Below, piece after piece: positions 271-51,410 of a stretch of DNA of 64,000 bases. Every line of letters starts with the position of its first letter. The stretch's first letter is position 1. The notes beneath the pieces were generated by a model. That model worked only from the letters and a program-made list of their open reading frames with translations, was not told where the DNA came from and made no database searches. The translations under genes were made by a program, and so were the position numbers. The stretch lies in sequence record PZ583742.1; one strand, 5' to 3'. This DNA comes from a phage.

Positions 271-328
271 TAACATGGACAGGTGGCTAATGAACGACGA
301 ACATCCAGATTTTTAAGAGGCTATATGA

Positions 329-502
329 ATGACGAATTCGACGGATTTTGATAAGATTAAATCTGACAAAAATGAGATGATACTTCAATTTGAAGCCGCT
401 CGCATTAAAGCAGAAAATGAAGGTACTATTACCTATAAGCCTATCAAGTTCAGGTCTTCTCATGAACCTCTGTATGGTGTATTAATTGAAAAGGAAGCCT
501 AG
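329..502 (+). CDS. hypothetical small protein (57 aa)
   Basis: ATG 329 with AAGAGG 8 nt upstream; stop sits inside a stem-loop terminator. Confidence 0.4.
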   Translation: MTNSTDFDKIKSDKNEMILQFEAARIKAENEGTITYKPIKFRSSHEPLYGVLIEKEA

Positions 503-515
503 TGCTTCCTTTTTT
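493..515 (+). terminator. intrinsic terminator
   Basis: Stem GGAAGC 493-498 / GCTTCC 504-509 followed by a T run. Confidence 0.55.
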
Positions 516-539
516 GCTTTATATTCGGGATGATAAAAT
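515..539 (+). promoter_or_regulatory. MotA-box middle promoter candidate
   Basis: TGCTTTA at 515-521 and TAAAAT at 534-539, 19 nt between TGCTT and -10 start. Confidence 0.45.
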
Positions 540-559
540 GAACCAACTGAGGAGAGTAT

Positions 560-703
560 ATGGAATTATTTTTAGGATATGTCGTGCTATTCATGGCATT
601 CTACACATTCACAAGAGCTTGTTGGATAGGATTCTTTTCTACTCCTGACGGGTTCATTTCAGTAATTTTATTTTGCATTGCGATAACGGTGCTTGGCTTA
701 TGA
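560..703 (+). CDS. small hydrophobic peptide (47 aa), predicted membrane
   Basis: GAGGAG SD upstream; stop overlaps gene 47 ATG (ATGA). Confidence 0.35.
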   Translation: MELFLGYVVLFMAFYTFTRACWIGFFSTPDGFISVILFCIAITVLGL

Positions 704-3885: not shown

Positions 3886-4077
3886 ATGGCTGACTTCTTA
3901 ACCGGGCAGCATTTACTGGCTGTCCCTGAAATTAAACGGTATGTGTTAGTTAATACCTTTTCGAAAGATGAACACCTTGTTACTGAACGTGACTTACAAA
4001 ACGCTTTCGGTGAAGAATATGTTAAAATAATCGCGAACAGACACAATGCCTGGTTTGCATATGAATACTTTGATTAA
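3886..4077 (+). CDS. hypothetical protein (63 aa)
   Basis: ATG 3886 with AGAGG upstream, just after the middle promoter. Confidence 0.4.
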   Translation: MADFLTGQHLLAVPEIKRYVLVNTFSKDEHLVTERDLQNAFGEEYVKIIANRHNAWFAYEYFD

Positions 4078-4101
4078 TTGATAATGAATAGAGAGAATAT
4101 T

Positions 4102-4509
4102 ATGAACAACGTAACTGCTAAAGATATCCAAGTTAAAACCATCCGCACCGACGCTAACCCACACAACCAAAACCGCATCCGCAAATCCTGGGTCCTGGCA
4201 TGTGATGAAGCATCTGCTGCCCGTCTGCAGTCTCTGCCGCAAGAAATTAAATTCATGCTGTACGGTGTGATTGATACTGATGTATCTGATAAGTGGATTG
4301 AACTGATGCGTAATCACTACAACGATTCACTGGCTGCTGGTGCTAAACTGGTTATCGACCGTGACGGTTCCGAACGTCTCGAAGATGATTACTGTGTTGA
4401 CTTCGACGACCACCTGGTCCAAGCTGGTTCTATTATTGCTGCGCAACTTCCAGAGTATATTGAATCTCTTCCGGAAGCTATCCGCAAACAAATGGCAGTT
4501 GTTGCGTGA
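4102..4509 (+). CDS. RpbA-like protein (by position between 46 and 45 and by size)
   Basis: 135-aa ORF with strongly biased codon use; start choice (4084 vs 4102) uncertain. Confidence 0.4.
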   Translation: MNNVTAKDIQVKTIRTDANPHNQNRIRKSWVLACDEASAARLQSLPQEIKFMLYGVIDTDVSDKWIELMRNHYNDSLAAGAKLVIDRDGSERLEDDYCVDFDDHLVQAGSIIAAQLPEYIESLPEAIRKQMAVVA

Positions 4510-5393
4510 ATTTGATTTATAAAATAACCTTTATAACAAGGGAACAAAATAATGAATTCCCTTGTTATTATATTGGTTCAAAGGTTGATACGACATTTAA
4601 TGGCCAAAATATTCTCGATAAAAATAATAAAATTTATACAGGTTCTCCGAATTCAAAATATACTACGCTGTATAATGAATTAATTGATAGCGGTGACTAT
4701 ATTGTTACTATCATTGGGGAAACAAAACAGGACCCAAGGAAAATAGAAAATATTTTTCAAATGTCAGTTAAAGCTGTAACCAATGAGAAATACTTTAATA
4801 AAACGTATGCACACGACAAAAGCCGCTATGATGCTCCTGGATATGCTCCATACCGAAACTTGAAAACGGGTAAAGTTGTTAAATTACATCCATCTGAACT
4901 TACATCTGATTATGTTGGTGTTCGTAAAGATTGTTCAATTTCAGATAAGCACATTCAAGCAATTAAAGACTTCCAAAAAGAATATTGGACTGACGAAGCT
5001 CGACAAGCAAGGTCTGTTGAAGTCAAAAATCGTTATAAAGATGTTGAGTATGCTTTAAAATTCAAAGCTATAATGAATACATCTGAAGTATATGAAAAAT
5101 ATTTAAAATCAATTACTGAATATTGGAATAATTCAGATAATAGAATAAAGGCTTCAAAACGAGCAACCGAACGAAATGCCAACCCTGAATTTAAAGAAAA
5201 ATTTAGGAAATCTAAAGCAAGAGGAACCTGGTTACAGTATGAAGATGAACTTAAAGCATTGTGGAATGCTTTAGGCCAACCAGGGTATATTAAGTTTAGA
5301 AAACACGCCATTGAACATGGGTTTAATGATGAAAACTATCAGGGTGCAATCCGGTCCTGGTCAAATTATTATGTTAATAGGAAAATGAAATGA
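4506..5393 (+). CDS. GIY-YIG-like homing endonuclease (Seg-like), free-standing
   Basis: N-terminal LIYKITF...CYYIGSK motif pair; AT-rich ORF wedged between conserved genes; GTG start. Confidence 0.5.
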   Translation: MNLIYKITFITREQNNEFPCYYIGSKVDTTFNGQNILDKNNKIYTGSPNSKYTTLYNELIDSGDYIVTIIGETKQDPRKIENIFQMSVKAVTNEKYFNKTYAHDKSRYDAPGYAPYRNLKTGKVVKLHPSELTSDYVGVRKDCSISDKHIQAIKDFQKEYWTDEARQARSVEVKNRYKDVEYALKFKAIMNTSEVYEKYLKSITEYWNNSDNRIKASKRATERNANPEFKEKFRKSKARGTWLQYEDELKALWNALGQPGYIKFRKHAIEHGFNDENYQGAIRSWSNYYVNRKMK

Positions 5394-6143: not shown

Positions 6144-7121
6144 ATGGCAACAGTAATTAACGGTTTGACAGTCAATGAATCCGACTTCATGTGGGAACAA
6201 AAATATCGCCCAGGTACATTATCAGAGTGTATTCTCCCGGCCCATGATAAAGAAACATTAGAGGCGATTGTTAAAAAAGGTTTGATTCCTAACTTGATTC
6301 TGGTCAGTAGTTCCCCTGGTACTGGTAAGACAACAGTTGCAAAAGCTATGTGTGCAGATACGAATTCTGATATGCTGTTTGTTAACGGCTCCGATTGCCG
6401 AATTGACTTTGTGCGTAATGAATTGACTCGCTTTGCATCATCCAAATCAATCGAAGGTCGCCGCAAGGTAATCGTTATCGATGAGTTCGACCGTGCAGGT
6501 CTGGCTGAATCACAACGGCACCTCCGTAGCTTTATGGAAGCTTATTCGAGTAACTGTTCAATCATTATGACCGCGAACAATATCGATGGTATCATCACTC
6601 CGTTGCAGTCTCGTTGTCGCGTCATTAAATTCGGTGAAGCAACTCCGGCTGACCAGACTACCATGATGAAAGAGATGATTCATCGTGCAGTCGCGGTATG
6701 TAAAAACGAAGGCGTTGAAATCGAAGACCTGAAAGTTGTTGCTGCTCTGGTTAAGCATAACTTCCCGGACCTGCGTAAGACAATTAACGAGCTTGACCGT
6801 TACTCTGCAAAGGGTGTTATCGATTCTGGTATTCTGAGTATCGTGACAAACAATCGCACACCAATTGATGATGTGATTGATGCCCTTAAGGACCGTAACT
6901 TTAAAGTTCTCCGTGGCTTGGCTCCTAAGCATGCAAATGATTATTCAAGCTTCATTGCAAAGCTGGCTGATGAAATGTATGGCAAACTGACTGGTGCAAG
7001 TATCATCCGCATGTATGAGATTGTAGGTGAGAATAATCAGTATCATGGCATTGCGGCCAATACCGAAGTACACTTGACTTATCTGTTTGCTCAACTGGCT
7101 GGGGAAATGAAATGGCTGTAA
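6144..7121 (+). CDS. 44: clamp loader large subunit gp44 (AAA+)
   Basis: Walker A SPGTGKTT, Walker B VIVIDEFD, SRC motif; start at 6144 after AGGA SD (upstream extension of the ORF-track frame rejected). Confidence 0.95.
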   Translation: MATVINGLTVNESDFMWEQKYRPGTLSECILPAHDKETLEAIVKKGLIPNLILVSSSPGTGKTTVAKAMCADTNSDMLFVNGSDCRIDFVRNELTRFASSKSIEGRRKVIVIDEFDRAGLAESQRHLRSFMEAYSSNCSIIMTANNIDGIITPLQSRCRVIKFGEATPADQTTMMKEMIHRAVAVCKNEGVEIEDLKVVAALVKHNFPDLRKTINELDRYSAKGVIDSGILSIVTNNRTPIDDVIDALKDRNFKVLRGLAPKHANDYSSFIAKLADEMYGKLTGASIIRMYEIVGENNQYHGIAANTEVHLTYLFAQLAGEMKWL

Positions 7122-8362: not shown

Positions 8363-11077
8363 ATGCAAGAATTTTATTTAACTATCGAACAAATCGGTGA
8401 CAATCTGCTTGAACGATACATTGACAAGAACGGTCATGAACGTGTTCGTGAAATCCCTTATGCTCCATGCTTGTTTATGCACGCCCGGGAAGGCCAGGCT
8501 GCAAAGTATACAGACATCTATAATAAAGGTTGTGTGAAAAAAGAATTCGATTCCATGCGTGATGCATCCCAGTGGATGAAGCGAATGAATGACATGGGCC
8601 TCGAAGTTATGGGTATGGATGACTTTAAACTCGCATACTTGTCCGACCGTTACCCACACGAAATCAAATATGATTCAAGTAAAATCCGTGTTGCTAACTT
8701 CGATATCGAGGTGACATCTCCTGATGGGTTCCCTGAACCGTCTGAAGCACGTCACCCTATTGATGCCCTGACGCACTATGATTCGGTAGACGATAAATTC
8801 TATGTCTTTGACCTTTTGGGCTCACCATACGCCACTGTGGAGCAATGGTCTATTGATATTGCTGCTAAGCTGCAGGAAGACGGTGGTGATGAAGTCCCTG
8901 AAGAAATCCTGGAAAAAATTGTTTATATGGCTTTCGATTCAGAAGAAGAAATGCTCCAGCAGTATTTGGTATTCTGGAACGAGAAAACTCCGGTTATGTT
9001 AACCGGTTGGAACATCGAGAAGTTTGATATTCCATATATCTACAACCGTCTTAAAAATGTATTTGGTGAAGCTACGGCAAAACGTCTGAGCCCACATCGT
9101 CGTACAAAAGTTAAGGTCATTAACAACGGCTTTGGTGAAGAACAAGAAATCATTCAGATTCTGGGTATCTCTGTTCTGGATTATCTGGACCTGTATAAAA
9201 AGTTCAGCTTCACAAACCAACCGTCTTATTCGTTGGATTATGTTGCGGAATCTGAACTGGGTGTTGGTAAACTCCCGTATGATGGTCCGATTTCTAAACT
9301 GCGTGAATCAAATCACCAGCGGTATATTTCTTATAACATCATCGACGTTTATCGTGTTGTGCAGATTGACCGTAAGCGGCAGTTTATTAACCTGAGTCAG
9401 TCAATGGGTTATTACGCAAAAATGCAGATTCAGTCTGTATTCAGCCCAATCAAAACTTGGGATGCGATTATCTTTAACAGCCTGAAGACTCAAAACAAAG
9501 TCATTCCGGAAACCAAATCGCATGTTCGTCAATCGTTCCCTGGTGCATTTGTTAAGGAACCTATTCCGAACGCGTACAAATATGTGATGAGCTGTGACTT
9601 AACATCTCTGTATCCAAGCATCATCCGACAGATTAATATCAGTCCAGAAACGATTGCCGGTTCATTTGCCCCAGCGCCGATGTATGAATACATCGCAGGA
9701 ACTGCTGACCGTCCATCTGATACATTTAGTTGTGCTCCAAATGGTATGATGTATTTTAAAGATGTTGCGGGTATTATTCCGACAGAAGTCACCAAGGTGT
9801 TTAATCAGCGTAAAGAGCACAAAGGCTATATGCTTGCGGCTCAACGTAATGGTGAACTGATTAAGGAAGCTCTGCGTAATCCAGGAACTGGCACAACCGA
9901 ACCAGAAGTTGATTATCGTCATGACTTTGATGACAATATGAAAACGGCCCTGCATGGTCTGAATCAAACAGTCCTGAATGGTATGTTGTACAAAGCGCAG
10001 ATGGAAGAAGTTGCAGGCATGACCGCACAGATTAACCGTAAACTGCTTATCAACAGTTGTTATGGCGCTCTGGGCAATATCTGGTTCCGTTACTTTGACC
10101 TGCGAAATGCAACCGCGATTACATCTTTCGGACAACTTGCATTGCAGTGGATTGAGCGTAAAGTTAACGAATACTTCGATAGTGTCTGTGGGACAAGCGG
10201 CGAAACTTATGTGTTCTATGGCGATACTGACTCCATTTATATCCAGTGCGATAACCTGATTAAAAAGGTTGGTGGCGAATCTAAATTCCGTGATACAAAC
10301 CACCTGGTTGACTTCATGGACAAGTTTGCGAAAGACCGTCTGGAACCGGCAATCGATAAAGCTTTCCGTGAGCTGGCTGAATACATGAACAACAAACAGC
10401 ACCTTATGTTTATGGACCGTGAAGCGATTGCATGTCCTCCGCTGGGTTCTAAGGGTGTGGGTGGATTCTGGACGGCGAAGAAGCGTTATGCACTGAACGT
10501 GTACGATATGGAAGGCACACGATATGCTGTTCCGAAATTGAAAATCATGGGTCTGGAAACTCAAAAGTCGAGTACTCCAAAGGCATGTCAGAAAGCTCTG
10601 AAAGAATGTATCCGCCGTATGCTGCAAGAAGGTGAAGAATCTCTGCAGACATACTTCAAGGAATTCAATAAGGAATTTAATGAGCTTAACTACATGACCA
10701 TCGCAGGTGTATCATCGGTTAACAACATCCAGAAATATAATGAAGGCGGTTTCCCTGGATTTAAGTGCCCGGCTCATATCAAAGGTGTGCTTGCATATAT
10801 GCGTGCAACTAAAGGTCTGAAGACTGTTCCACAAATCATGGAAGGGGAAAAGGTGTATGTACTTCCTCTTAAAGTCGGTAACCCGTTTGGTGAAACCGTG
10901 ATTGCATGGCCATCTGGGATTGAACTCCCGATTGAAATCCGTGACCAGGTTCTGCAGTGGATGGACTACAACATACTGTTCCAGAAGACTTTTGTTAAGC
11001 CATTAACAGGTTTCTCTGAAGCTGCAAAGGTTGATTACGAAAAGAAAGCAACTCTTTTTGATATGTTTGACTTTTAA
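8363..11077 (+). CDS. 43: DNA polymerase gp43 (family B)
   Basis: Exo motif FDIE, motif A DLTSLYPSII, motif C YGDTDS; 904 aa. Confidence 0.97.
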   Translation: MQEFYLTIEQIGDNLLERYIDKNGHERVREIPYAPCLFMHAREGQAAKYTDIYNKGCVKKEFDSMRDASQWMKRMNDMGLEVMGMDDFKLAYLSDRYPHEIKYDSSKIRVANFDIEVTSPDGFPEPSEARHPIDALTHYDSVDDKFYVFDLLGSPYATVEQWSIDIAAKLQEDGGDEVPEEILEKIVYMAFDSEEEMLQQYLVFWNEKTPVMLTGWNIEKFDIPYIYNRLKNVFGEATAKRLSPHRRTKVKVINNGFGEEQEIIQILGISVLDYLDLYKKFSFTNQPSYSLDYVAESELGVGKLPYDGPISKLRESNHQRYISYNIIDVYRVVQIDRKRQFINLSQSMGYYAKMQIQSVFSPIKTWDAIIFNSLKTQNKVIPETKSHVRQSFPGAFVKEPIPNAYKYVMSCDLTSLYPSIIRQINISPETIAGSFAPAPMYEYIAGTADRPSDTFSCAPNGMMYFKDVAGIIPTEVTKVFNQRKEHKGYMLAAQRNGELIKEALRNPGTGTTEPEVDYRHDFDDNMKTALHGLNQTVLNGMLYKAQMEEVAGMTAQINRKLLINSCYGALGNIWFRYFDLRNATAITSFGQLALQWIERKVNEYFDSVCGTSGETYVFYGDTDSIYIQCDNLIKKVGGESKFRDTNHLVDFMDKFAKDRLEPAIDKAFRELAEYMNNKQHLMFMDREAIACPPLGSKGVGGFWTAKKRYALNVYDMEGTRYAVPKLKIMGLETQKSSTPKACQKALKECIRRMLQEGEESLQTYFKEFNKEFNELNYMTIAGVSSVNNIQKYNEGGFPGFKCPAHIKGVLAYMRATKGLKTVPQIMEGEKVYVLPLKVGNPFGETVIAWPSGIELPIEIRDQVLQWMDYNILFQKTFVKPLTGFSEAAKVDYEKKATLFDMFDF

Positions 11078-11080
11078 GTG

Positions 11081-11109
11081 TTTACAACGGCAATGGATTG
11101 CCGTATGAT
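11081..11109 (+). promoter_or_regulatory. early sigma70 promoter with stem-loop in spacer
   Basis: TTTACA 11081-11086, 17-nt spacer holding CGGCAAT/ATTGCCG hairpin, TATGAT 11104-11109. Confidence 0.55.
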
Positions 11110-11146
11110 TACCTCATCAACTGATGAATAACTTAAGGATATTAAA

Positions 11147-11389
11147 ATGGAAACATTAATTGCGGGTACTGTTGTTCTTGGTGCGGGTTCTTTCTTCCTG
11201 GCTGCACTGGCATATTTTCTGCCGTGGATTATCGCGCTGCTGCGTGGTACCAAAAGTAATTGTGGAATCTTCTTTGTTAACCTCCTGTTAGGTTGGACAA
11301 TGGTCGGATGGTTTATTGCATTTATCTGGGCACTCGTTGCTGAACGTAAATCAAACGCACAAGTAATTATCATCAAGGAAGCAAAATGA
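11147..11389 (+). CDS. imm: superinfection immunity protein Imm
   Basis: 80-aa two-TM protein with LPWIIALLRG...LLGWTMVGW motifs; position after gene 43. Confidence 0.7.
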   Translation: METLIAGTVVLGAGSFFLAALAYFLPWIIALLRGTKSNCGIFFVNLLLGWTMVGWFIAFIWALVAERKSNAQVIIIKEAK

Positions 11390-11529
11390 AGATAATTACA
11401 ATTATTGTACTGATTGCATTTTTTAGTATGTCAATCTATTGGGCAATAATGACTCCGCATATGATTCCAACTTTAATTTTGGGTTGGGTATTTTTGGGGC
11501 TCCAAGCCCGCTATGAATGTTTTAATTGA
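11386..11529 (+). CDS. small hydrophobic peptide (47 aa)
   Basis: ATGA overlap with imm stop; single predicted TM segment. Confidence 0.3.
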   Translation: MKIITIIVLIAFFSMSIYWAIMTPHMIPTLILGWVFLGLQARYECFN

Positions 11530-11539
11530 GGAAAATACA

Positions 11540-12043
11540 ATGAAAAAGTTAGCTATCGCAGCTGTTATGCTGCTATCTGGTTGTGCTTACCAGGGTGATG
11601 TTGTTAATGCCAACGAGATTGGTAAAGCGCGAATTGCTGCAGACCGTCAGGTGCATAATGGTTCCTTTGATTTCAAAGGCGGTACTGGACTTATCTACAA
11701 ACGCGACAACAATCAATGTGGAAACAACTGCGCGAAATATGCTCAACAAGAAATTGAGTACAAACGCGAGCAAGCTGCGAAGCATGACGAAATCATTGCC
11801 AAGCTGGAAGCAGAAACTAAGCGACAAAATGACCTGGATACTGTTAACCAGATTTCACAGGTCTGCATGTCATATATCAATATGCAGATAAACATCATGC
11901 GCGCAGAAGCTTATCAGGCAGCGGAGACGGGTTCTCCAAAAGCTAATGAGTACCGCGATATGTATCAGCGTTCTGCTCAAAACCGTCTGAGCTATATTAA
12001 TAAATGTGTGGCTAAAGAGAAAGCACGCCAAGGTATTAACTGA
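11540..12043 (+). CDS. predicted lipoprotein (167 aa)
   Basis: Signal peptide MKKLAIAAVMLLSGC with lipobox LSGC; GAGGA SD upstream. Confidence 0.5.
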   Translation: MKKLAIAAVMLLSGCAYQGDVVNANEIGKARIAADRQVHNGSFDFKGGTGLIYKRDNNQCGNNCAKYAQQEIEYKREQAAKHDEIIAKLEAETKRQNDLDTVNQISQVCMSYINMQINIMRAEAYQAAETGSPKANEYRDMYQRSAQNRLSYINKCVAKEKARQGIN

Positions 12044-12150
12044 TGTTATTATTACTTCTGATTGTTGTAACAGTAATTGGTTTGTTGCTATTAGAAAAGC
12101 GTAATAAGCATTTGAATGAAGAAAACTGGAAACGTGGTAACGTTTACTAA
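12043..12150 (+). CDS. small hydrophobic peptide (35 aa)
   Basis: TGATG overlap with lipoprotein stop; Leu-rich TM segment. Confidence 0.3.
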   Translation: MLLLLLIVVTVIGLLLLEKRNKHLNEENWKRGNVY

Positions 12151-12177
12151 ATTGCTCTGAACTGCGAGAAGAATATT

Positions 12178-12306
12178 ATGATTGGTATGTTATTGATTAG
12201 CCTATGGCTGTTGTCTGCATTTGGTATTGGGTTTATGTACTGGTGGGACAAACGTCAGACCCGGAAGATTGTTGAACGTGCAATTAATCGTGGATTCAAT
12301 CGTTAA
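12178..12306 (+). CDS. small hydrophobic peptide (42 aa)
   Basis: ATG after AGAAGAA purine run; TM segment then basic tail. Confidence 0.3.
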   Translation: MIGMLLISLWLLSAFGIGFMYWWDKRQTRKIVERAINRGFNR

Positions 12307-12307
12307 T

Positions 12308-12332
12308 TGCTCTAAAAATACAGTGATATAAT
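12308..12332 (+). promoter_or_regulatory. MotA-box-like middle promoter candidate for uvsX
   Basis: TGCTCTA 12308-12314 (one mismatch) and TATAAT 12327-12332. Confidence 0.35.
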
Positions 12333-12385
12333 TATCCTATCTTAAACCTGTGAGAAAAATATAATGGTGCCTATGGAAAAAATGA

Positions 12386-13564
12386 ATGTCTATTGCAGAT
12401 TTGAAATCCCGTTTGATTAAAGCTTCTACATCCAAAATGACCGCGACTCTTACCAAGTCCAAGTTTTTTAATGATAAAGATGTAGTTCGTACAAAAATCC
12501 CGATGCTGAACATTGCAATCAGCGGTGCACTAGATGGTGGTATGCAGTCAGGTTTGACTATTTTTGCTGGTCCGTCAAAACACTTTAAATCCAATATGGG
12601 TTTAACGATGGTCTCTGCATATATGAACAAATACCCCGATGCAATCTGTTTGTTCTATGATTCAGAATTTGGTATCACAGAAGCCTATCTTCGTGCAATG
12701 AAAGTTGACCCGGAACGTGTTATCCACACACCAATCCAGTCGGTTGAACAATTGAAAGTTGATATGGTTAACCAGCTTGAAGCAATTGAGCGTGGTGAAA
12801 AAGTCATTATCTTTATTGACTCAATCGGTAACATGGCATCGAAAAAAGAAACAGAAGATGCGATGAACGAAAAAGTCGTTGGCGATATGACTCGTGCTAA
12901 ATCCCTGAAATCTCTGTTCCGTATTGTTACCCCGTATTTTAGTATCAAGGATATTCCTTGTGTCGCGGTTAACCATACAATCGAGACGATTGAGATGTAT
13001 AGCAAAACCGTTATGACCGGTGGCACAGGTGTTATGTATTCCGCGGACACCGTATTCATTATCGGCAAACGTCAGATTAAAGAAACTGGTAAAGAACTTG
13101 AAGGCTTCCAATTTGTTCTGAACGCCGAAAAATCTCGTATGGTCAAAGAGAAAAGTAAATTCTTCATTGATGTAAAATTCGATGGCGGTATTGACCCGTA
13201 TTCTGGCCTGCTTGATATGGCAATGGAAATCGGATTTGTGGTGAAACCAAAAGTTGGTTGGTATAACCGTGAATATCTTGATGTTGAGACCGGTGAAATG
13301 GTCCGCGAAGAAAAATCATGGCGCGCAAAAGATACTAACTGCACCGAATTCTGGGGCCCATTGTTCAAACACGAACCTTTCCGTGACGCAATCAAACGCC
13401 ATTACCAACTGGGTGCAATCGATAGCAATGCTGTTGTTGATGCCGAAGTTGATGCGCTTATTGCCTCCAAGGTTGAAAAATACACTGCTCCTGAAGGTAA
13501 GACAAAACCGTCTGCTGCAGATATTGAAAACGATTTAGATATGATGGAAGACCTTGATGAATGA
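12386..13564 (+). CDS. uvsX: recombinase UvsX (RecA-like)
   Basis: Walker A GPSKHFKS; 392 aa; close to T4 UvsX throughout. Confidence 0.95.
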   Translation: MSIADLKSRLIKASTSKMTATLTKSKFFNDKDVVRTKIPMLNIAISGALDGGMQSGLTIFAGPSKHFKSNMGLTMVSAYMNKYPDAICLFYDSEFGITEAYLRAMKVDPERVIHTPIQSVEQLKVDMVNQLEAIERGEKVIIFIDSIGNMASKKETEDAMNEKVVGDMTRAKSLKSLFRIVTPYFSIKDIPCVAVNHTIETIEMYSKTVMTGGTGVMYSADTVFIIGKRQIKETGKELEGFQFVLNAEKSRMVKEKSKFFIDVKFDGGIDPYSGLLDMAMEIGFVVKPKVGWYNREYLDVETGEMVREEKSWRAKDTNCTEFWGPLFKHEPFRDAIKRHYQLGAIDSNAVVDAEVDALIASKVEKYTAPEGKTKPSAADIENDLDMMEDLDE

Positions 13565-13898: not shown

Positions 13899-15322
13899 AA
13901 ACTATTTTATCCCAGCTACTCTTTAACAAGGAATATTTTGTTAAAGTCTGGCCATATCTGAATAATACATATTTTGAAAAGGGTCCTGCAAAGACCCTTT
14001 TTAATACGATTAACGAACACGTAAAAGAATATCAAGCGGTACCAACTAAGACTGCACTTGATATCGCGCTCGACAGTTCTGACCTTTCTGAAGTCGAATA
14101 TGAAGGCACAAAGAAACTCTTAGGAGTCCTGGCCGATACTCCAGAAGACCAGGAATGGTTGGTTAAAGAAACCGAGAAGTATGTACAGAAGTCTGCGATG
14201 TTCAATGCCACATCCAGGATTATCGAAATCCAGAGTAATGCCGAACTTCCGAAAGATAAACGTGATAAACGAATCCCGGATATTGGTGCTATCACCGACA
14301 TCATGCGCGATGCATTGTCTATCTGTTTTGACTCTGCTCTGGGCCATGACTGGTTAAACGATTACGAAGCTCGATTCCAGACTTATCTGAACAAATCGAA
14401 GAAGGTTCCGTTCCGTATTAACATCCTGAATAAAATCACAAAGGGTGGGGTTGAGTACGGTACAGAGAACGTTTTACTGGCTGGGACAAACGTCGGCAAA
14501 TCCCTTGGACTTTGTTCGTTAGCGGCTGACTATCTTCAGACTGGTCATAACGTGCTTTATATAAGCATGGAAATGGCTGAAGAAGTATGTGCCAAACGTA
14601 TTGATGCCAACTTGCTGGATGTATCTCTGGATGATATTGATGAAGGTCATGTGTCATGGGCAGAATACAAAAGTAAGATGGAAAAATGGCGCGCAGCCGG
14701 GACTCTTGGGACTCTGAAGATAAAACAATATCCAACTGGTGGTGCTCATGCGGATACCTTCCGTGCATTATTGAATGAATACAAACTGAAACAAGGGTTT
14801 GTGCCGGATGTGATTATTGTTGACTACCTGGCAATCTGTGCAAGCTCAAGATTGAAAACGTTTACCGAAAACAGTTACGGCCTGATTAAAATGGTTGCAG
14901 AAGAACTTCGTGGCCTGGCGGTCGAGAAAAATGTGGTCCTGTGGACTGCAGCACAGACAACCAGGGGCGCGAACGTTGCAGCTGAGATTGATATGGCTGA
15001 CATTGCAGAATCCTTTGGTATTGCTCACACGGCCGATTTTATGTTGGGTGTTGTTGAGACTGAAGAATTCGCTCAAATGGGTCTGCAGTTAATCAAACAG
15101 CTTAAGTCTCGTTATGGTGATAAGAACTACTATAATAAATTCAAGATGGGTGTTAAGAAAGGTAATCAGCGCTGGTATGAGGTTGATGATGATTCGGCTC
15201 CTAAACAAGGCCCTACGGTTAAAGAAGCCACTGGTGAGATGAATCGCCAGGCTGAAATGAATAGACAAACCAGGGTCAACAGGAGCGACCTGGACGACCT
15301 TGCTGCTCAAATGAAATTCTAA
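13892..15322 (+). CDS. 41: replicative DNA helicase gp41 (DnaB-like)
   Basis: Walker A GTNVGKS; MVETILSQLLF aligns with the T4 gp41 N-terminus; GTG start 6 nt after GAGGTGG. Confidence 0.95.
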   Translation: MVETILSQLLFNKEYFVKVWPYLNNTYFEKGPAKTLFNTINEHVKEYQAVPTKTALDIALDSSDLSEVEYEGTKKLLGVLADTPEDQEWLVKETEKYVQKSAMFNATSRIIEIQSNAELPKDKRDKRIPDIGAITDIMRDALSICFDSALGHDWLNDYEARFQTYLNKSKKVPFRINILNKITKGGVEYGTENVLLAGTNVGKSLGLCSLAADYLQTGHNVLYISMEMAEEVCAKRIDANLLDVSLDDIDEGHVSWAEYKSKMEKWRAAGTLGTLKIKQYPTGGAHADTFRALLNEYKLKQGFVPDVIIVDYLAICASSRLKTFTENSYGLIKMVAEELRGLAVEKNVVLWTAAQTTRGANVAAEIDMADIAESFGIAHTADFMLGVVETEEFAQMGLQLIKQLKSRYGDKNYYNKFKMGVKKGNQRWYEVDDDSAPKQGPTVKEATGEMNRQAEMNRQTRVNRSDLDDLAAQMKF

Positions 15323-15340
15323 AGACCTTCGGGTCTTTTT
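15322..15340 (+). terminator. intrinsic terminator (UUCG tetraloop)
   Basis: AAGACC-TTCG-GGTCTT then TTTT, overlapping gp41 stop. Confidence 0.6.
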
Positions 15341-15350
15341 CATTTAGAGG

Positions 15351-15379
15351 TTTACAACACCATAAAAGGGGTGTACCAT
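15351..15379 (+). promoter_or_regulatory. early sigma70 promoter
   Basis: TTTACA, 17-nt spacer, TACCAT. Confidence 0.5.
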
Positions 15380-15380
15380 T

Positions 15381-15413
15381 ATCCCATCAACTACTGATGA
15401 GGATAATAAAATG
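15381..15413 (+). repeat. conserved 5' leader cassette, copy 1 of 3
   Basis: ATCCCATCAACTACTGATGAGGATAATAAAATG; near-identical copies at 24432-24463 and 28551-28583. Confidence 0.8.
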
Positions 15414-15659
15414 TTATTAGTTAATGTGCATTACCAGTTCAAATCTGAAGAAGCTCTCCAAAAGTATGCTGATATTTGTGAGCATAATAAAAGAACAGCT
15501 GCCATTGTTGGTCTGAAGCCTTTTAAAATTTTGGATTGCACCTTGAACAGAGCAAGGCGCTGGTGTAGTGTTGCCTGTCATGCTTCAGTTGAAGGGAATG
15601 ATTATTTTTTCATTACTTTCAATGCACAAGATTTTCATTTAATTAATGAATTAAAATAG
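15411..15659 (+). CDS. hypothetical protein (82 aa)
   Basis: ORF behind early promoter and conserved leader. Confidence 0.4.
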   Translation: MLLVNVHYQFKSEEALQKYADICEHNKRTAAIVGLKPFKILDCTLNRARRWCSVACHASVEGNDYFFITFNAQDFHLINELK

Positions 15660-16109: not shown

Positions 16110-16427
16110 ATGAAAACCATTGATTGCAAGGCAGAATACAAAGTTTATTATCATGGGTCAAGCTCTAATGCTGGAATCCAAAATATGCTTTGCCCTCCTG
16201 ATGCAACTGGTGTTCTGTCAGAAGTTGGACGTAAGAAAAACCTGAATCGTGTGTTCTTTACTGAAGATATCGGTTTGGCTAAGATTTATGCTGGACGTGC
16301 AGCTCGTTCAGTGGGAGGAGAACCTCGTCTTTATCGTGTAATTGCTCCGGTAGATGTGGTTTGTTTAAATGATACTAAAGGCGCCACGGTTTATCATGCT
16401 GAATGGGCCTTCTGCGAGGAAATCTAA
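16110..16427 (+). CDS. hypothetical protein (105 aa)
   Basis: ORF preceded by TGTTATAAT extended -10 and ATCAACTACTGGAG leader; no confident domain. Confidence 0.4.
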   Translation: MKTIDCKAEYKVYYHGSSSNAGIQNMLCPPDATGVLSEVGRKKNLNRVFFTEDIGLAKIYAGRAARSVGGEPRLYRVIAPVDVVCLNDTKGATVYHAEWAFCEEI

Positions 16428-16430
16428 ATG
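16416..16430 (+). repeat. repeated gene-junction cassette GAGGAAATCTAAATG (copy 1)
   Basis: Identical 15-mer at 16626-16640; each encodes a C-terminal EEI, the stop, and the next start. Confidence 0.7.
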
Positions 16431-16637
16431 GAAGAGTTTGCTAAAGTAGTTTTTATCGGTTGGTTTGAAAATGATAGCATGTTTACCAAAGAAATCCGCA
16501 TGGATATATCAGACAAAGAGCATATCATGTGGGCGACCATGAGTTTTGCTGAAGTAAATAAAGCATTGGTAAAAGCCTTTGTCAACGATGTGAAAGTGTT
16601 TGAATGTGATTGGCGCAACAAGCCTGAGGAAATCTAA
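16428..16637 (+). CDS. dmd: Dmd-like antitoxin (discriminator of mRNA degradation)
   Basis: KVVFIGWFENDSMFTKEI...AEVNKALVKAF matches T4 Dmd as I recall it; lies next to gene 41 as T4 gene 61.5 does. Confidence 0.55.
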   Translation: MEEFAKVVFIGWFENDSMFTKEIRMDISDKEHIMWATMSFAEVNKALVKAFVNDVKVFECDWRNKPEEI

Positions 16638-16877
16638 ATGAATATTACCTTAATGAAACCAACTCCCGGTTCTTTTTGGAACAAATCTTTTGGTAAGCAT
16701 AATATGTTTATCCAACGCACTGTAAGCAACTGGGAACTAGTTCTTTCAGTCGGCCACAACGATTATGAACAAGAATACGTAGAGTTCTTCGATTTTCCTG
16801 TGAAGCCTACTAAGCGTCAGATTCGTCAGACAAAACGTAAATTCCGTAAAATTTATTTGGAAGACGCATTAAAATAG
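16638..16877 (+). CDS. hypothetical basic protein (79 aa)
   Basis: C-terminal PTKRQIRQTKRKFRK motif shared with ORF 18021-18242. Confidence 0.4.
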   Translation: MNITLMKPTPGSFWNKSFGKHNMFIQRTVSNWELVLSVGHNDYEQEYVEFFDFPVKPTKRQIRQTKRKFRKIYLEDALK

Positions 16878-17229: not shown

Positions 17230-17667
17230 ATGATTAACAGAAATTTAGTTATCAAAAAACTTCGTTGTAAAAATCCAAATGCACAAGCATACAGGGCGTT
17301 TTGGAGCGACGACCATCAATACCTGGGTTATTTTCTTGTTGATAGTGATGATAGAATTACGTTTGCTCATAAACTTCTTAACAAAGAATTAAACCATTGG
17401 AAAGAACTTATTGCGGTCAAGTCCAAATTATTTTCTTGCAATACAATGCACCAATTGGTTTATTTTTTCGCTGATGGTATTCCTGACAAGGTTGAGTTTG
17501 ACGGGTTTGAATTTAAAGACATCAACCCTGATAATGAATTGAATGACAGTATTGTTAATATGGGTATCCCTGGCAAGTACATCAAAAACAGTCTTTTGAA
17601 AATTCTGGAAACCCCTGTTTATTCAGTTGACGACCAGATTTTTAATGCTTTCATGAAGCGAGATTAA
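17230..17667 (+). CDS. hypothetical protein (145 aa)
   Basis: ATG with GGTGA upstream; C-terminus SVDDQIFNAFMKRD shared with next ORF. Confidence 0.4.
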   Translation: MINRNLVIKKLRCKNPNAQAYRAFWSDDHQYLGYFLVDSDDRITFAHKLLNKELNHWKELIAVKSKLFSCNTMHQLVYFFADGIPDKVEFDGFEFKDINPDNELNDSIVNMGIPGKYIKNSLLKILETPVYSVDDQIFNAFMKRD

Positions 17668-17671
17668 TATG
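17626..17671 (+). repeat. 46-bp direct repeat, copy 1
   Basis: Matches 17978-18023 with 3 mismatches; spans a gene end, stop and next ATG. Confidence 0.8.
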
Positions 17672-18019
17672 AATGATTACAATTTTCTGAATTTTGAACT
17701 GGCGAGCAATAATGATGGTAATGCTCATTATGAATTCCGCGACCCTCGGTTTAATCAGGCGATTGGTTATATTATCGTTAAAGATGATATTATCATAAAG
17801 GCTCGCTCATTCCTGGTAATGAAAGGACCTTATGAAGATACTCGCGGTTATCCGTTTGATAAAAAGAATGTGCGTGATTGCGCCGCCTGGATAACGGGAA
17901 ATCCCAAAATTGGAGTCATGTTATCTGATGAAGCGAACGACATTTTGAATGGGGTAGGCAAAGCTCAAGAACAGTCTGTCGACGACCAGATTTTTAATGC
18001 CTTCATGAAGCGAGGTTAA
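17669..18019 (+). CDS. hypothetical protein (116 aa)
   Basis: Ends with SVDDQIFNAFMKRG, encoded by the second repeat copy. Confidence 0.4.
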   Translation: MNDYNFLNFELASNNDGNAHYEFRDPRFNQAIGYIIVKDDIIIKARSFLVMKGPYEDTRGYPFDKKNVRDCAAWITGNPKIGVMLSDEANDILNGVGKAQEQSVDDQIFNAFMKRG

Positions 18020-18023
18020 TATG
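17978..18023 (+). repeat. 46-bp direct repeat, copy 2
   Basis: See 17626-17671. Confidence 0.8.
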
Positions 18024-18242
18024 TTTGTTTTGACCCAATTCTCTAAAGCAATATATAGTTACTCTTGTCAATGGGAAGTCTTTATTGACACTCCGTCTCC
18101 CAAGTACGGAGTTTTTGGACGAGTAACTACTCAAGCTTACGTTGCTCGACCAACTAAACGCCAGATTCGTAAACTTAAAAAGGCACATCGTCAACTGATT
18201 AAAAGAAGGGAACAATATGAGTGCAATGTGTACGGGCTCTAA
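18021..18242 (+). CDS. hypothetical basic protein (73 aa)
   Basis: PTKRQIRKLKK motif paralogous to ORF 16638-16877. Confidence 0.4.
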   Translation: MFVLTQFSKAIYSYSCQWEVFIDTPSPKYGVFGRVTTQAYVARPTKRQIRKLKKAHRQLIKRREQYECNVYGL

Positions 18243-18408
18243 GATTTCTGTCTTCCAGATTTTTGAAGAATATGAAATCGTATCGCAAGACCAAGAAGCA
18301 ATCCATGTTATCGCTGATGATGGTGTTACCTGGATTATTCCGTTGTATCATGAAGACACTTATGAAGTGACTGATGCAAATGGTGATAAAGCTATCTTCG
18401 TTGTATAA
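18217..18408 (+). CDS. hypothetical acidic protein (63 aa)
   Basis: ATG with AAGGG upstream. Confidence 0.35.
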   Translation: MSAMCTGSKISVFQIFEEYEIVSQDQEAIHVIADDGVTWIIPLYHEDTYEVTDANGDKAIFVV

Positions 18409-18627: not shown

Positions 18628-19656
18628 ATGTCATATATTGATAAAGAATTTGCAGTCAGAGCTTTATCGTATCAACCACGTTATAGAGAAGTCACCGGGA
18701 GCACATTTAAAGCAAACTGTCGTTGCAAGGTTTGTGGGGACTCCCAGAAAGATTCACACAAGGCTCGATTCTGGGCGTATACTAATCCGACTGATGGCGC
18801 GGTTTACGTGAAATGTTTTAACTGTGACTACTCCACGCATATAAGCAAATACATAAAAGAGTTTGAGCCGGATTTACACCGGGAATATATGGTTGAGAAG
18901 TATAAGGAGAATGCATTTGGGCGACAACGCACTGAAGTTGCAGAAGCTCCGAAAGAACCAGAAAAAACTCCGGTTATTGAGCAGCTTGCTTTTTGTGAAA
19001 GACTCGATACTTTACCAGAAGCACATCCGATAATTAAGTATGTAAAAAGTCGGTGTATTCCGAGCAATGTTTGGAACCGGTTATGGTTTACAAACAAATG
19101 GCCTGCATTAGTTAACTCCGTTAATCCTGGGACGTATAAGAATGAAACGAATGAACCACGCTTGGTTATTCCTATCTTCAACGGCAAAAAAGAAATCGAA
19201 TCTTTCCAAGGACGAGCTCTTCGCAAAGATGCACCACAAAAATATATCACAATCAAAGCTCACCCAGAAGCTTCCAAAGTCTATGGCGTAGACAAGATTG
19301 ATGAGCGTAAACGCGTATGGGTAATGGAAGGTCCAATTGATAGTTTGTTTATCCCTAACAGCATTGCGATAACCGGTGGAACATTAGCATTGGAAGCTGT
19401 TCCTTACCCAGAAACCAGAGTATGGGTGATGGATTCAGAAGCAAGACATCCTGATACGATTAAACGTATGAAGAAATTAGTCGATGCAGGAGAAGCTGTT
19501 ATGTTCTGGGACAACGCACCGTGGCATACGAAAGATATAAATGAAATGATTAAATCGGAAGGAGCAACGCCTGAGCAAATTGAAGCCTATATGAATGATA
19601 ATATTGCACAAGGTTTAATGGCAAAACTTCGATTATCCAAATATGCAAAAATATGA
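18628..19656 (+). CDS. 61: DNA primase gp61
   Basis: Zinc ribbon CRCKVCGDS...CFNCDY; 342 aa; C-terminal LMAKLRLSKYAKI as in T4 gp61. Confidence 0.95.
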   Translation: MSYIDKEFAVRALSYQPRYREVTGSTFKANCRCKVCGDSQKDSHKARFWAYTNPTDGAVYVKCFNCDYSTHISKYIKEFEPDLHREYMVEKYKENAFGRQRTEVAEAPKEPEKTPVIEQLAFCERLDTLPEAHPIIKYVKSRCIPSNVWNRLWFTNKWPALVNSVNPGTYKNETNEPRLVIPIFNGKKEIESFQGRALRKDAPQKYITIKAHPEASKVYGVDKIDERKRVWVMEGPIDSLFIPNSIAITGGTLALEAVPYPETRVWVMDSEARHPDTIKRMKKLVDAGEAVMFWDNAPWHTKDINEMIKSEGATPEQIEAYMNDNIAQGLMAKLRLSKYAKI

Positions 19657-20420
19657 ATTATCTAAAATTATATAATAAATTAATAGACAAAGGCCTCGCA
19701 AGGGGCCTAAACAAAAAGAATATCCCATTTTATACGGAGTCCCATCATATACTACCAAGGTGTTTGGGTGGACCTGACACCGAAGATAATTTGGTATTGT
19801 TATCAGCAAGAGAACATTTTATTGCACATTTGTTACTTTTTAAAATTTATCGACTTTCTAAATTAATGTTTGCTATACACCGGATGTGCGGTGACAAATT
19901 TGATAGCGCAAAATATGAATGGATGCGAAAAGAACATAGTAAAGCCGTTAGTGAACATATGTCAAACTTATGGAGTCAATCCGAGTTTAAAGACAAAATG
20001 TTAATTGCTTTACACAAGCGACATAACGACCACCCTGTGTCTGATAAAACCAAAAGTAAAATAGCTAACTCATTAAAATTGTATTATCAAAATAATCCAG
20101 TTACTGATGAACAACGGCAAAAGAATCGCGATGCACAAATGAGAAGATTTAAAGAAAATCCGCAAACCGAAGAAACGAAAAAGTTGCGGCGAGAAGCATG
20201 CCGAAAGGCAACTGGAACACCGGTTTGTAGATGCGATGAATTTGGTAATATACTTGAAAAGTATAATTCGGGAGCTGAGGCAAAGGAATTATTACAATTG
20301 GCGGGCAATACTCAAAATATATACACAGCTTGTAAAAGAAATAAAAAGACAGGCCGAATGTATAGGTCAAACGGCCATTTTTGGAAGTATCAAGACGAGG
20401 AAGGGATTCCGGTAAAGTAA
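19653..20420 (+). CDS. HNH homing endonuclease with NUMOD-like DNA-binding repeats
   Basis: HNH core ESHHILPRCLGGPDTEDNLVLLSAREHFIAH; basic repeated C-terminal half; ATGA overlap with gene 61 stop. Confidence 0.7.
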   Translation: MNYLKLYNKLIDKGLARGLNKKNIPFYTESHHILPRCLGGPDTEDNLVLLSAREHFIAHLLLFKIYRLSKLMFAIHRMCGDKFDSAKYEWMRKEHSKAVSEHMSNLWSQSEFKDKMLIALHKRHNDHPVSDKTKSKIANSLKLYYQNNPVTDEQRQKNRDAQMRRFKENPQTEETKKLRREACRKATGTPVCRCDEFGNILEKYNSGAEAKELLQLAGNTQNIYTACKRNKKTGRMYRSNGHFWKYQDEEGIPVK

Positions 20421-20886: not shown

Positions 20887-21405
20887 ATGGCTCATTTTAA
20901 TGAATGTTCTCAACTGATTGCTGGTGTTGATAAAGCTCAGGGCGCTTATGATAATGCAATTTTTGAAGGCACTGACCCACTGCAAGTTATGCTTGATATG
21001 CAGAAATCATTGCAGGTTCGTCTGGCTAAAGAAAAACCAGAATATAACGAACATCCTGATAACCTGGCGACTGCTGGTGAAGTTGTTACCTGGCTCCGCA
21101 ACCAGAAAGATTATATTGATGATGAATTCCGTGAACTGATTACTGCATTAGGTGGCATGTCCAATGGCGAGAAAGCTGCCTCGGCCGTATGGAAACCATG
21201 GAAAGCACAACATGGCGAAATGCAGCAAACCCTGATTAATGATTTATCTCCTGAAGACCAGCTCGAAATTAAATTTGAGATGATTGATATCCTGCACTTT
21301 GTCCTGAACATGTTCCACGGTCTTGGACTGACTGCAGAAGAAATCTTTAAATTGTATTATCTGAAAAATGCCGAAAACTTTGCTCGTCAAGACCGAGGTT
21401 ATTAA
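20887..21405 (+). CDS. 56: dCTP pyrophosphatase gp56 (all-alpha NTP-PPase)
   Basis: MAHFNEC...DPLQVMLDMQ...FKLYYLKNAENFARQDRGY close to T4 gp56; start at 20887 after AAGGA. Confidence 0.85.
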   Translation: MAHFNECSQLIAGVDKAQGAYDNAIFEGTDPLQVMLDMQKSLQVRLAKEKPEYNEHPDNLATAGEVVTWLRNQKDYIDDEFRELITALGGMSNGEKAASAVWKPWKAQHGEMQQTLINDLSPEDQLEIKFEMIDILHFVLNMFHGLGLTAEEIFKLYYLKNAENFARQDRGY

Positions 21406-25982: not shown

Positions 25983-26279
25983 ATGTACTACGCATATGTG
26001 CTGGTTCACAAAGATAAAGATGGTTTTGAACGCCCATTGGAATACAATGGAAAGGTTACCTTATACACCACAAAAGCGGGTGCAGAATATGAACTTGCCA
26101 ACTATTCATATACCACAAACCGATATTTAAGTATGGGGCGTATTGAAACCATTTACATTCCTAGGAAGTGGTGGTTTGATAAGCGTGAAACAAAAACAGT
26201 TTTTCCTACTGAAGAACACGCACGAGAATTGAAACAGGTTTTATATACTTTATATGTTAAGCGAGTAAAATTGGCATGA
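25983..26279 (+). CDS. hypothetical protein (98 aa)
   Basis: ATG after GAGG; stop overlaps dda start. Confidence 0.4.
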   Translation: MYYAYVLVHKDKDGFERPLEYNGKVTLYTTKAGAEYELANYSYTTNRYLSMGRIETIYIPRKWWFDKRETKTVFPTEEHARELKQVLYTLYVKRVKLA

Positions 26280-46556: not shown

Positions 46557-46567
46557 GCGCTTATGTA

Positions 46568-47350: not shown

Positions 47351-47361
47351 ATAAACCTCCA

Positions 47362-47377
47362 AGGGGCCGAAGCCCCT
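47362..47377 (-). other. UUCG-tetraloop hairpin between genes 37 and 38
   Basis: Minus-strand RNA AGGGGC-UUCG-GCCCCU just upstream of gene 38 SD. Confidence 0.5.
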
Positions 47378-47381
47378 CTTA

Positions 47382-50711: not shown

Positions 50712-50719
50712 AATGCCTC

Positions 50720-51367: not shown

Positions 51368-51402
51368 TTATAAGTCCTCTTCAACCGGCATATGATATTT
51401 TG

Positions 51403-51410
51403 TATTTATA
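51403..51410 (-). promoter_or_regulatory. late promoter TATAAATA for gene 36
   Basis: Plus strand reads TATTTATA, about 36 nt upstream of the gene 36 start. Confidence 0.5.

Follow-up and report, generated by a model that had tools for sequence, protein, structure and literature searches.

The 64,000-nucleotide stretch of phage DNA analysed here (sequence record PZ583742.1, referred to below as the window) comes from a T4-like phage of the genus Gaprivervirus, VR7/SP18 group. Between gene 43 (DNA polymerase) and uvsX (recombinase), five tightly packed open reading frames (ORFs) occupy positions 11147-12306 of its plus strand. This interval is probably the hyperplastic cytosine-modification island of T-even-type phages, and the envelope genes found there are probably its conserved promoter-proximal part. 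Gene 42, alpha-gt and beta-gt are absent from this phage and have not been relocated. For a non-canonical cytosine, the likeliest origin is its td gene, a member of the thymidylate synthase (TS) family that is predicted to methylate deoxycytidine monophosphate (dCMP). The real difference from T4 lies in the missing cytosine-modification genes and in a one-residue change in td; the envelope cluster is ordinary, comprising homologues of known T4 genes and two ORFan cassettes, which are hypothetical in many records.

Gaprivervirus genomes match the interval and its flanks at 94–98% nucleotide identity (Escherichia virus TH44, phage 212, vB_EcoM_RZ, VR7, VR20, VR26 and Shigella phage SP18). Along its length the window is collinear with VR7 and corresponds to VR7 from about 35.2 kb down to 1 and from 169.1 kb down to 142.5 kb, and the gene order around the interval is 45, 44, 62, regA, 43, the interval, uvsX, 40 and 41. 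An earlier interpretation of this DNA made without database searches (the sequence-only reading) had described five membrane-targeted ORFs between gene 43 and uvsX. All five were found in their places on the plus strand, and envelope targeting of all five products is supported by hydropathy profiles. The features of the interval and its flanks are listed below (aa, amino acids; nt, nucleotides).

8363-11077, plus strand: gene 43 DNA polymerase, left flank of the interval (904-aa ORF; annotated at the matching place in phage 212 and VR7)
11081-11109, plus strand: sigma-70 early-promoter-like site upstream of imm, TTTACA-17-TATGAT (consensus scan, 10 of 12 matches)
11147-11389, plus strand: imm, superinfection immunity inner-membrane protein, 80 aa (Pfam Imm_superinfect, phrog_1039)
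11386-11529, plus strand: 47-aa double-hydrophobic membrane peptide, phrog_3610, gp42.1 in the VR7 annotation (its ATG overlaps the imm stop)
11540-12043, plus strand: Imm.1-family lipoprotein, 167 aa, lipobox LSGC with Ala at +2 (phrog_1754; GAGGA 8 nt upstream)
12043-12150, plus strand: 35-aa single-span membrane peptide (by hydropathy), strain-variable cassette (its ATG overlaps the lipoprotein stop)
12148-12161, plus strand: junction repeat TAAATTGCTCTGAA, end of the 35-aa cassette (recurs at each cassette end in alignment A1)
12178-12306, plus strand: 42-aa single-span membrane peptide with a basic tail (by hydropathy), strain-variable cassette
12304-12332, plus strand: junction repeat TAATTGCTCTAAAA, with TATAAT 12 nt later, next to uvsX (read directly; invariant in four phages)
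12386-13564, plus strand: uvsX recombinase, right flank of the interval (392-aa ORF; annotated uvsX in VR7 and phage 212)

The corresponding order in T4 is gene 43, imm.1, imm, gene 42, beta-gt, segA and uvsX, which agrees with the content given in the sequence-only reading and adds to it imm.1 and segA, both present in the T4 annotation. That reading took the five genes to be an envelope cluster standing where T4 has gene 42 and beta-gt. The description is not supported: three of the five (imm, the 47-aa peptide and the lipoprotein) have T4 homologues at the same locus, and T4 itself carries there a lipobox lipoprotein (Imm.1) and a 47-aa peptide, both of which had been overlooked. Nor does the cluster seem to be an expanded module, as its only additions are two tiny ORFs that occur in all four combinations among close relatives.

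The imm product is a true member of the Imm_superinfect family, as the sequence-only reading had assigned it. It matches the Pfam profile (PF14373) with 64.2 bits against a cut-off of 27.9 (expectation value, E, 1e-17) and phrog_1039 with an E of 2e-30; tblastn gives 52% identity to T4 Imm over the full length (83 aa). Its hydrophobic spans at residues 3-33 and 39-66 give the same hydropathy profile as T4 Imm. By homology, this two-span inner-membrane protein would block the entry of DNA from superinfecting T-even phages. Homology suggests such an exclusion role for Imm and for none of the other four genes; of the superinfection-exclusion or envelope module proposed earlier, the envelope targeting of all five products has stood, and the exclusion link has been narrowed to Imm.

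The 47-aa peptide matches phrog_3610 (E 8e-27), has two hydrophobic spans (residues 1-23 and 25-41, by hydropathy), and is present at 52–57% identity in T4, JS98, CHI14 and CIP9 (tblastn). The T4 copy lies within a 153-bp stretch between imm and gene 42 that is blank in RefSeq, and itself matches phrog_3610 (E 1e-25). The T4 reference annotation therefore misses a conserved membrane-peptide gene (NC_000866, positions 26230-26370, minus strand); the homologue is likewise without annotation in CIP9 and is mis-started in JS98. The VR25 copy of the peptide retains the motif P.MIPTLIL.W...ECFN.

The signal peptide of the lipoprotein reads MKKLAIAAVMLLSG followed by C, which conforms to the lipobox pattern [LVI][ASTVI][GAS]C. 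Hydropathy places its only hydrophobic segment in this signal peptide; the C-terminal half is helical, and four further Cys residues are present besides that of the lipobox. Both the lipoprotein (E 4e-47) and T4 Imm.1 (E 6e-43) match phrog_1754 over their full length, and T4 Imm.1 is likewise a lipobox lipoprotein, of 125 aa (MKIAILVIALGLAGC). The Pfam family DUF5481, to which T4 Imm.1 scores 5e-72, gave no match to the window protein at E up to 1. By its profile matches, the lipoprotein is a longer, divergent branch of the T4 Imm.1 family. A resemblance to Cor/Llp-type exclusion lipoproteins was rejected, the match to phrog_1119 (Cor) having an E of 0.022 and covering residues 3-19 only, as was a match to a type VI secretion system immunity lipoprotein that was limited to the signal peptide.

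In the first family alignment (A3) neither the lipobox Cys nor the two C-terminal Cys vary, and the latter two are nearly invariant in the larger alignment A4 as well. The conserved Cys suggest periplasmic disulfides, and the Ala at +2 is the single feature from which an outer-membrane location may be inferred. An AlphaFold2 model built from an 18-sequence alignment has a mean predicted local distance difference test (pLDDT) score of 71.5 and is confident, and helical, only at about residues 65-165. A literature search on imm.1 found nothing. In RefSeq, T4 Imm.1 (fetched stretch L004, positions 6637-7014) bears the name "iduronate sulfatase", which looks like an annotation artefact because Imm.1 is a 125-aa lipobox lipoprotein of the DUF5481 family.

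Coding status was judged from the ratio of nonsynonymous to synonymous differences (pN/pS) against VR7, EAWsc9, phage 212 and VR25. Purifying selection acts on four of the five ORFs, namely imm (pN/pS about 0.07-0.19), the 47-aa ORF, the lipoprotein gene (about 0.05-0.2) and the 42-aa ORF. Sigma-70-like sites are no more frequent in this region than in shuffled sequences, and the site at 11081-11109 is a lead only. A terminator-like hairpin at 11466-11488, inside the 47-aa ORF, was rejected on the same ground, and an Rfam scan of positions 10900-12600 returned nothing meaningful.

The same locus was compared in other T-even-type phages. In JS98, gene 43 is followed by imm, a small ORF, the lipoprotein gene, and then genes annotated as similar to RB69 ORFs 52, 51, 45, 48 and 47; the genes of the RB69 cluster serve 5-hydroxy-dCMP synthesis and arabinosylation (NAR 2026; PMC13326640). 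In CHI14, gene 43 is followed by the lipoprotein gene, an arabinose-5-phosphate isomerase gene, the 47-aa ORF and a large ORF, and CIP9 has the same layout with its genes annotated as hypothetical only. The interpretation of the interval as a modification island follows from this comparison; JS98 carries the envelope genes and a full modification cassette downstream of them. The envelope genes appear to coexist with modification genes and not to replace them, and imm, the Imm.1-type lipoprotein gene and the 47-aa peptide gene represent a conserved start of the gene 43-uvsX island in several T-even-type genera. In the Gaprivervirus slot the modification genes are missing and this early envelope set remains, with the lipoprotein and peptides presumably acting in the envelope alongside Imm.

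It is doubtful that gene 42 and beta-gt have given way to a single expanded module for superinfection exclusion or envelope remodelling made up of the five genes. Such a module would account for five membrane-targeted products encoded in one transcription unit with overlapping stop and start codons, and for the presence of a genuine superinfection immunity gene among them. However, the T4 homologues of three of these genes lie alongside gene 42 and beta-gt, JS98 holds the genes together with a complete modification cassette, and isolates of 94–98% identity differ in their content of the two extra ORFs, each of which varies independently of the other. Furthermore, the CHI14 and CIP9 stretches fetched contain the lipoprotein gene and the 47-aa ORF and gave no imm match, so the three envelope genes need not be one functional unit. 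A Foldseek search with the lipoprotein model returned from PDB and BFVD only generic helical hairpins and its own JS10 orthologue, and so gave no lead to a function.

The absence of the modification genes was examined in the window and in the complete genome of VR7 (169,285 bp), which was assembled from four fetched stretches. Both were searched by tblastn (E up to 1) with ten queries, three of them from T4 (gp42, alpha-gt and beta-gt), four from the JS98 cassette and three from that of CHI14, and neither gave anything above noise. T4 gp42 and beta-gt have no match in the window, confirming their absence from the interval as described in the sequence-only reading, and a relocation of intact copies, which that reading had allowed for, was not seen: both are absent genome-wide in VR7. 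The relevant features of the window are as follows.

290-703, plus strand: a-gt.2 and 47.1 homologues, about 58 bp apart, with the alpha-gt slot empty (ORFs 329-502 and 560-703)
20887-21405, plus strand: gene 56 dCTPase/dUTPase homologue (69% identity to VR7 gp56; Pfam dUTPase_2 and PRA-PH)
38421-39014, plus strand: denB (endonuclease IV) homologue (97% identity to the VR7 protein annotated DenB)

In tblastn searches, T4 a-gt.2 matches positions 290-487 and T4 47.1 matches positions 566-700; T4 has mobB and a-gt between the two, and the window lacks both there while retaining the neighbours a-gt.2 to a-gt.5. The window also holds ndd and sp. The sequence-only reading had correctly located gene 56 and a td-family gene elsewhere in the window, and had asked which DNA modification this phage uses. 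The question is a real one that is already in print for the genus, as is the absence of gene 42: members of Gaprivervirus have no gp42 although they retain 56, denA, denB, alc and ndd, from which a non-canonical base or enzyme was concluded to be likely (PMC8056088; PMC12115623). A phage that has this combination of genes is not expected to be able to replicate if its cytosine is unmodified (PMC12115623). A Pfam scan of ten VR7 ORFs without a T4 counterpart, made for another base-modifying enzyme, returned only homing-endonuclease-type and DUF domains, and a literature search on SP18 and cytosine modification found nothing.

The sole TS homologue in the VR7 genome is td. In the window, this gene and its neighbour are arranged as follows.

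61877-62458, plus strand: frd dihydrofolate reductase (DHFR), stop overlapping the td start (Pfam DHFR_1, 3e-21)
62455-63315, plus strand: td, TS-family enzyme in which Asp stands where ThyA has Asn177; predicted to be a dCMP methylase, and a candidate replacement for gene 42

The td product matches Pfam PF00303 with an E of 6e-91, is 65–70% identical to T4 Td, and aligns almost without gaps to the T4 thymidylate synthase structure PDB 1TIS (one 1-residue indel). The catalytic residues are retained (Cys146, Arg166, Tyr94 and His207), and the motifs PPCH, QRS, YGKQWR and NTHIY are conserved. Where T4 Td has PFNIASY, however, the window protein reads PFDIGSY, which places Asp at the position of E. 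coli ThyA Asn177, and it therefore lacks the Asn that characterises a canonical TS specific for deoxyuridine monophosphate (dUMP). It keeps Leu143 (in QMALPPCH) and Asp169 (in RSVDVF), and so combines the two residue features of XP12-like dCMP methylases, namely Asp177 and a hydrophobic residue 143 with Asp169. The residues at positions 143, 169 and 177 in alignment A5 are given below.

Window td: Leu, Asp, Asp
T4 gp42: Asp, Asp, Asp
JS98 gp48-like enzyme: Glu, Asn, Asp
T4-type Td: Leu, Asp, Asn

In this alignment T4 gp42 and the JS98 gp48-like enzyme served as controls and reproduced the published residue rules. Asn177 excludes dCMP, and the N177D substitution switches TS from dUMP to dCMP and yields a dCMP methylase (PMC8670742). 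A Leu at position 143 is associated with methyl products and an Asp or Glu there with hydroxymethyl ones, while D169N marks the 5-hydroxy-dCMP synthases (PMC13326640). Asp-type TS homologues of XP12 and of metagenomic phages gave 5-methyl-deoxycytidine when expressed together with T4 gp1 (bioRxiv 10.1101/2024.12.05.627091). The window td is predicted to methylate dCMP because Asn177 has been replaced by Asp while Leu143, Asp169 and the catalytic Cys are retained. The retention of frd, overlapping td, fits an enzyme that still oxidises folate.

The distribution of the substitution is restricted. Among the 120 closest td homologues, Asp177 occurs in five, comprising all four Gaprivervirus clusters and a metagenomic protein, P0070, and the other 115 have Asn. 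The td genes of Acinetobacter phages 133 and ZZ1 bear the same Leu/Asp/Asp signature, and these are the other T4-like phages listed as lacking gp42 yet keeping alc and denB (PMC8056088). RB49, the DNA of which has ordinary cytosine (PMC6563267), has Asn177 in its td. No earlier report of an Asp-type Gaprivervirus td was found in the searchable literature.

P0070 itself (292 aa; Logan contig SRR24146912_91236, positions 3953-4831) has Asp177 and the other Gaprivervirus-type signature residues. Its nearest named relatives are the Gaprivervirus td genes, to which it is only 67% identical, and no closer match was found among sequenced phages; it points to what may be a second, unsequenced lineage with a converted td.

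A pathway can be proposed on this basis. The product of gene 56 would turn deoxycytidine triphosphate (dCTP) into dCMP, the Asp-type Td would methylate it to 5-methyl-dCMP, and the gp1 kinase and then the polymerase would follow, giving DNA substituted with 5-methylcytosine (5mC) for which glycosyltransferases would not be needed. The chances seem about even that the Gapriverviruses, and independently 133 and ZZ1, have lost the gene 42 pathway, converted td to a dCMP methylase by an Asn to Asp change, and carry 5mC in place of cytosine.

Several points weigh against a 5mC genome. The argument from td draws on a residue signature and a phyletic pattern only, and the nucleoside composition of Gaprivervirus DNA was not found in the searchable literature. 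One Gaprivervirus record lists as its host E. coli K-12 MG1655, a strain that carries McrBC, McrA and Mrr, and no arn is annotated in VR7, so fully 5mC-substituted DNA would need another countermeasure. If td no longer makes deoxythymidine monophosphate (dTMP), the phage must use host ThyA or the deamination of 5-methyl-dCMP. The VR7 protein VR7ORF147c, considered as a deaminase that would give dTMP from 5-methyl-dCMP, has no deaminase motifs and no Pfam match, and was dropped.

Of the other explanations, an ordinary-cytosine genome, in which the Asp-type td acts mainly as a thymidylate synthase and the homologues of 56, denB and alc are tolerated or have themselves diverged, is unlikely. The td product passes the NCBI thymidylate synthase equivalog cut-off, its similarity to T4 Td and its intact catalytic residues are as expected of such an enzyme, and T4-like phages with cytosine DNA also retain a gene 56 homologue (Table 4 in PMC12115623). 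Against these stand the exclusion of dCMP by Asn177 and the shift in preference caused by N177D (PMC8670742), and the published expectation that this gene set does not replicate with unmodified cytosine (PMC12115623). The phyletic pattern also disagrees with it: Asp is found neither in the 115 td homologues of phages that have a separate dCMP-modifying enzyme nor in RB49, and it recurs in exactly the three T4-like lineages that lack gp42 but have alc and denB. That the Asp-type td is instead a gp42 analogue making 5-hydroxymethyl-dCMP or another C5 derivative, with unglycosylated hydroxymethylcytosine (hmC) in the DNA, is decidedly improbable. In its favour, Asp177 fixes the substrate only, alc, denB and 56 evolved together with DNA of the hmC type, and the product rule at position 143 is a correlation and not a proof. 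Against it, td keeps Leu143 where known hydroxymethylases have Asp or Glu, and keeps Asp169 and so is not of the 5-hydroxy type. Its TS C-terminal tail is complete and a DHFR gene is coupled to it, which is to be expected if folate is oxidised in methyl transfer. A true TS also becomes a methylase through the single substitution N177D or N229D (PMC8670742; PMC13326640).

VR7ORF147c, which lies outside the window (VR7 positions 65136-65561; fetched stretch L007, positions 15136-15561), is a 141-aa protein of phrog_9997 that is annotated as deaminase-like. Its homologues were found only in Gaprivervirus (usually at two loci in each genome), Acinetobacter phages 133, ZZ1 and W16, two Morganella phage records, Erwinia phage RF1 and Rosemountvirus-like phages, the last being myoviruses of Salmonella and E. 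coli with genomes of about 52 kb. All four carriers that were checked (VR7, 133, ZZ1 and UPF_BP2) have a TS homologue with Asp177 and Leu143. One might speculate that the family is tied to that modification, for example in protection from methyl-dependent restriction. In the Rosemountvirus Salmonella phage UPF_BP2, the protein annotated as thymidylate synthase (fetched stretch L016, positions 17458-18342) has Leu143, Asp169, Asp177 and Tyr147; its gene adjoins one for a nucleotide pyrophosphohydrolase, and a thymidylate-kinase-like gene and a DHFR gene are found elsewhere in the genome. Rosemountvirus may also carry a C5-modified cytosine.

The two mini-ORFs at the uvsX end of the interval differ in nature from the envelope genes shared with T4. 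Each encodes a peptide whose single hydrophobic span is N-terminal and whose tail is charged or basic (hydropathy), and neither has a family match in Pfam, PHROGs or NCBIfam. The 35-aa ORF occurs in 12 records, all Gaprivervirus, and the 42-aa ORF is at least 95% identical in 17 Gaprivervirus records and matches Dhakavirus weakly at the syntenic place, immediately upstream of uvsX. An alignment of the spacer between the lipoprotein gene and uvsX revealed all four presence/absence states: EAWsc9 has neither mini-ORF, VR7 the 42-aa ORF only, VR25 the 35-aa ORF only, and the window and phage 212 both. Every cassette unit ends in TAA(A)TTGCTCT and is bounded by TAATTGCTCT, and in EAWsc9 the junction motif is also found directly after the lipoprotein gene (alignment A1). 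From the T4 middle-promoter consensus, the repeat at 12304-12332 with its TATAAT is taken to be a MotA-box-type middle promoter for uvsX. The two mini-cassettes have probably come and gone through recombination at this short repeat, in which the middle-promoter motif of uvsX lies. Between the window (12043-12150) and VR25 (fetched stretch L014, positions 2010-2117) the 35-aa cassette has diverged by about 5%, whereas identity in the lipoprotein gene next to it is only about 75%, with a synonymous divergence (pS) of 0.68; because the cassette is far less diverged than its neighbour, a recent horizontal exchange within the genus is suggested.

The mini-ORFs could also be chance reading frames in the intergenic spacer upstream of uvsX, which we consider improbable. 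Both are very short and lack family matches, several records leave them without annotation, and the 35-aa ORF has a pN/pS of about 0.3-0.5 on only four to six differences, too few to judge coding, which counts against reading it as a gene. The 42-aa ORF, on the other hand, shows no nonsynonymous and three to four synonymous differences among relatives and is highly conserved across 17 genomes. Both ORFs share the pattern of a hydrophobic span and charged tail, the start of the 35-aa ORF overlaps the lipoprotein stop, and each moves as a discrete cassette with its own junction repeat.

Other parts of the window also differ from VR7. Upstream of gene 56, a 255-aa ORF at 19653-20420 has an HNH endonuclease match of 19.9 bits, under the Pfam cut-off of 21.4; this stretch has no counterpart in VR7, which has segF beside 56, and is probably a different homing endonuclease insertion. 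The distal tail-fibre region at 46565-54119 (by position, genes 36, 37 and 38) can hardly be aligned with VR7 DNA, although its flanks are about 90% identical, which is the usual divergence of a host-range cassette. Further alignment gaps hold accessory ORFs that are strain-specific early genes, at 4761-5393 (210 aa), 16110-16877 (105, 69 and 79 aa) and 59870-60522 (120 and 75 aa).

Gapriverviruses have been proposed for therapy, and recommendations on their use are on hold over the implied modified base (PMC8056088; PMC12115623). If the reading of td as a dCMP methylase is true, it would answer the question of a non-canonical base that was raised for the genus in 2021 and 2025, and would explain the lack of glycosyltransferases in these phages. 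It would also predict sensitivity to methyl-dependent restriction (McrBC, McrA and Mrr) and not to hmC-directed systems, and would give a T-even lineage a simple route for swapping one cytosine modification for another. Annotations of td in T4-like genomes would need a check of residue 177, as pipelines name the gene "thymidylate synthase". We know of no report of a 5mC-substituted T4-type coliphage. The td signature turns a published open question into a concrete prediction that can be tested cheaply.

In comparison with known systems, the envelope genes resemble the T4 block in comprising the same three families (Imm_superinfect, the phrog_1754/Imm.1 lipobox lipoprotein and phrog_3610) at the same locus and on the same strand relative to gene 43. 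They differ from it in order, which is imm.1, imm and the 47-aa ORF in T4 and imm, the 47-aa ORF and the lipoprotein gene in the window; in the length of the lipoprotein, which at 167 aa against 125 aa for T4 Imm.1 has an extra NQCGNNC segment; and in what follows, namely gene 42, beta-gt and segA in T4 and the two mini-ORFs in the window. The RB69/JS98/CHI14 island occupies the same slot and begins in JS98 with imm, the small peptide and the lipoprotein, and in CHI14 and CIP9 with the lipoprotein, the 47-aa ORF lying further in. Unlike this island, the window and VR7 lack homologues of the tested cassette genes (synthase, transferase and sugar-nucleotide genes).

For the mini-cassettes the nearest parallel lies in the hyperplastic regions of T4-type phages, for which Arbiol and colleagues are said to have described in 2010 a modular shuffling of small early ORFs with promoter-stem-loop cassettes. 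In both cases tiny ORFan genes beside a repeated regulatory sequence are gained or lost between close relatives. The repeat in the window, however, resembles a MotA-box middle promoter and not an early promoter with a stem-loop, and no stem-loop was found.

The window td belongs to the same enzyme superfamily as T4 gp42 and shares with it the Asp at the substrate-specifying position, but the two are only about 21–25% identical, and gp42 has Asp143 and lacks the TS C-terminal tail. With the dCMP methylases of XP12, PaMx74 and metagenomic phages, td shares the TS fold, the catalytic Cys, Asp177 and a hydrophobic residue 143, and a dCTP pyrophosphatase and a deoxynucleoside monophosphate kinase co-occur; the linked 5mC-selective deaminase of XP12-type phages was not identified in the window or VR7. 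Unlike the XP12-type enzymes, the window enzyme is close to a true T4 Td and sits in the td position beside frd, which suggests that td itself was converted and not that a methylase was acquired.

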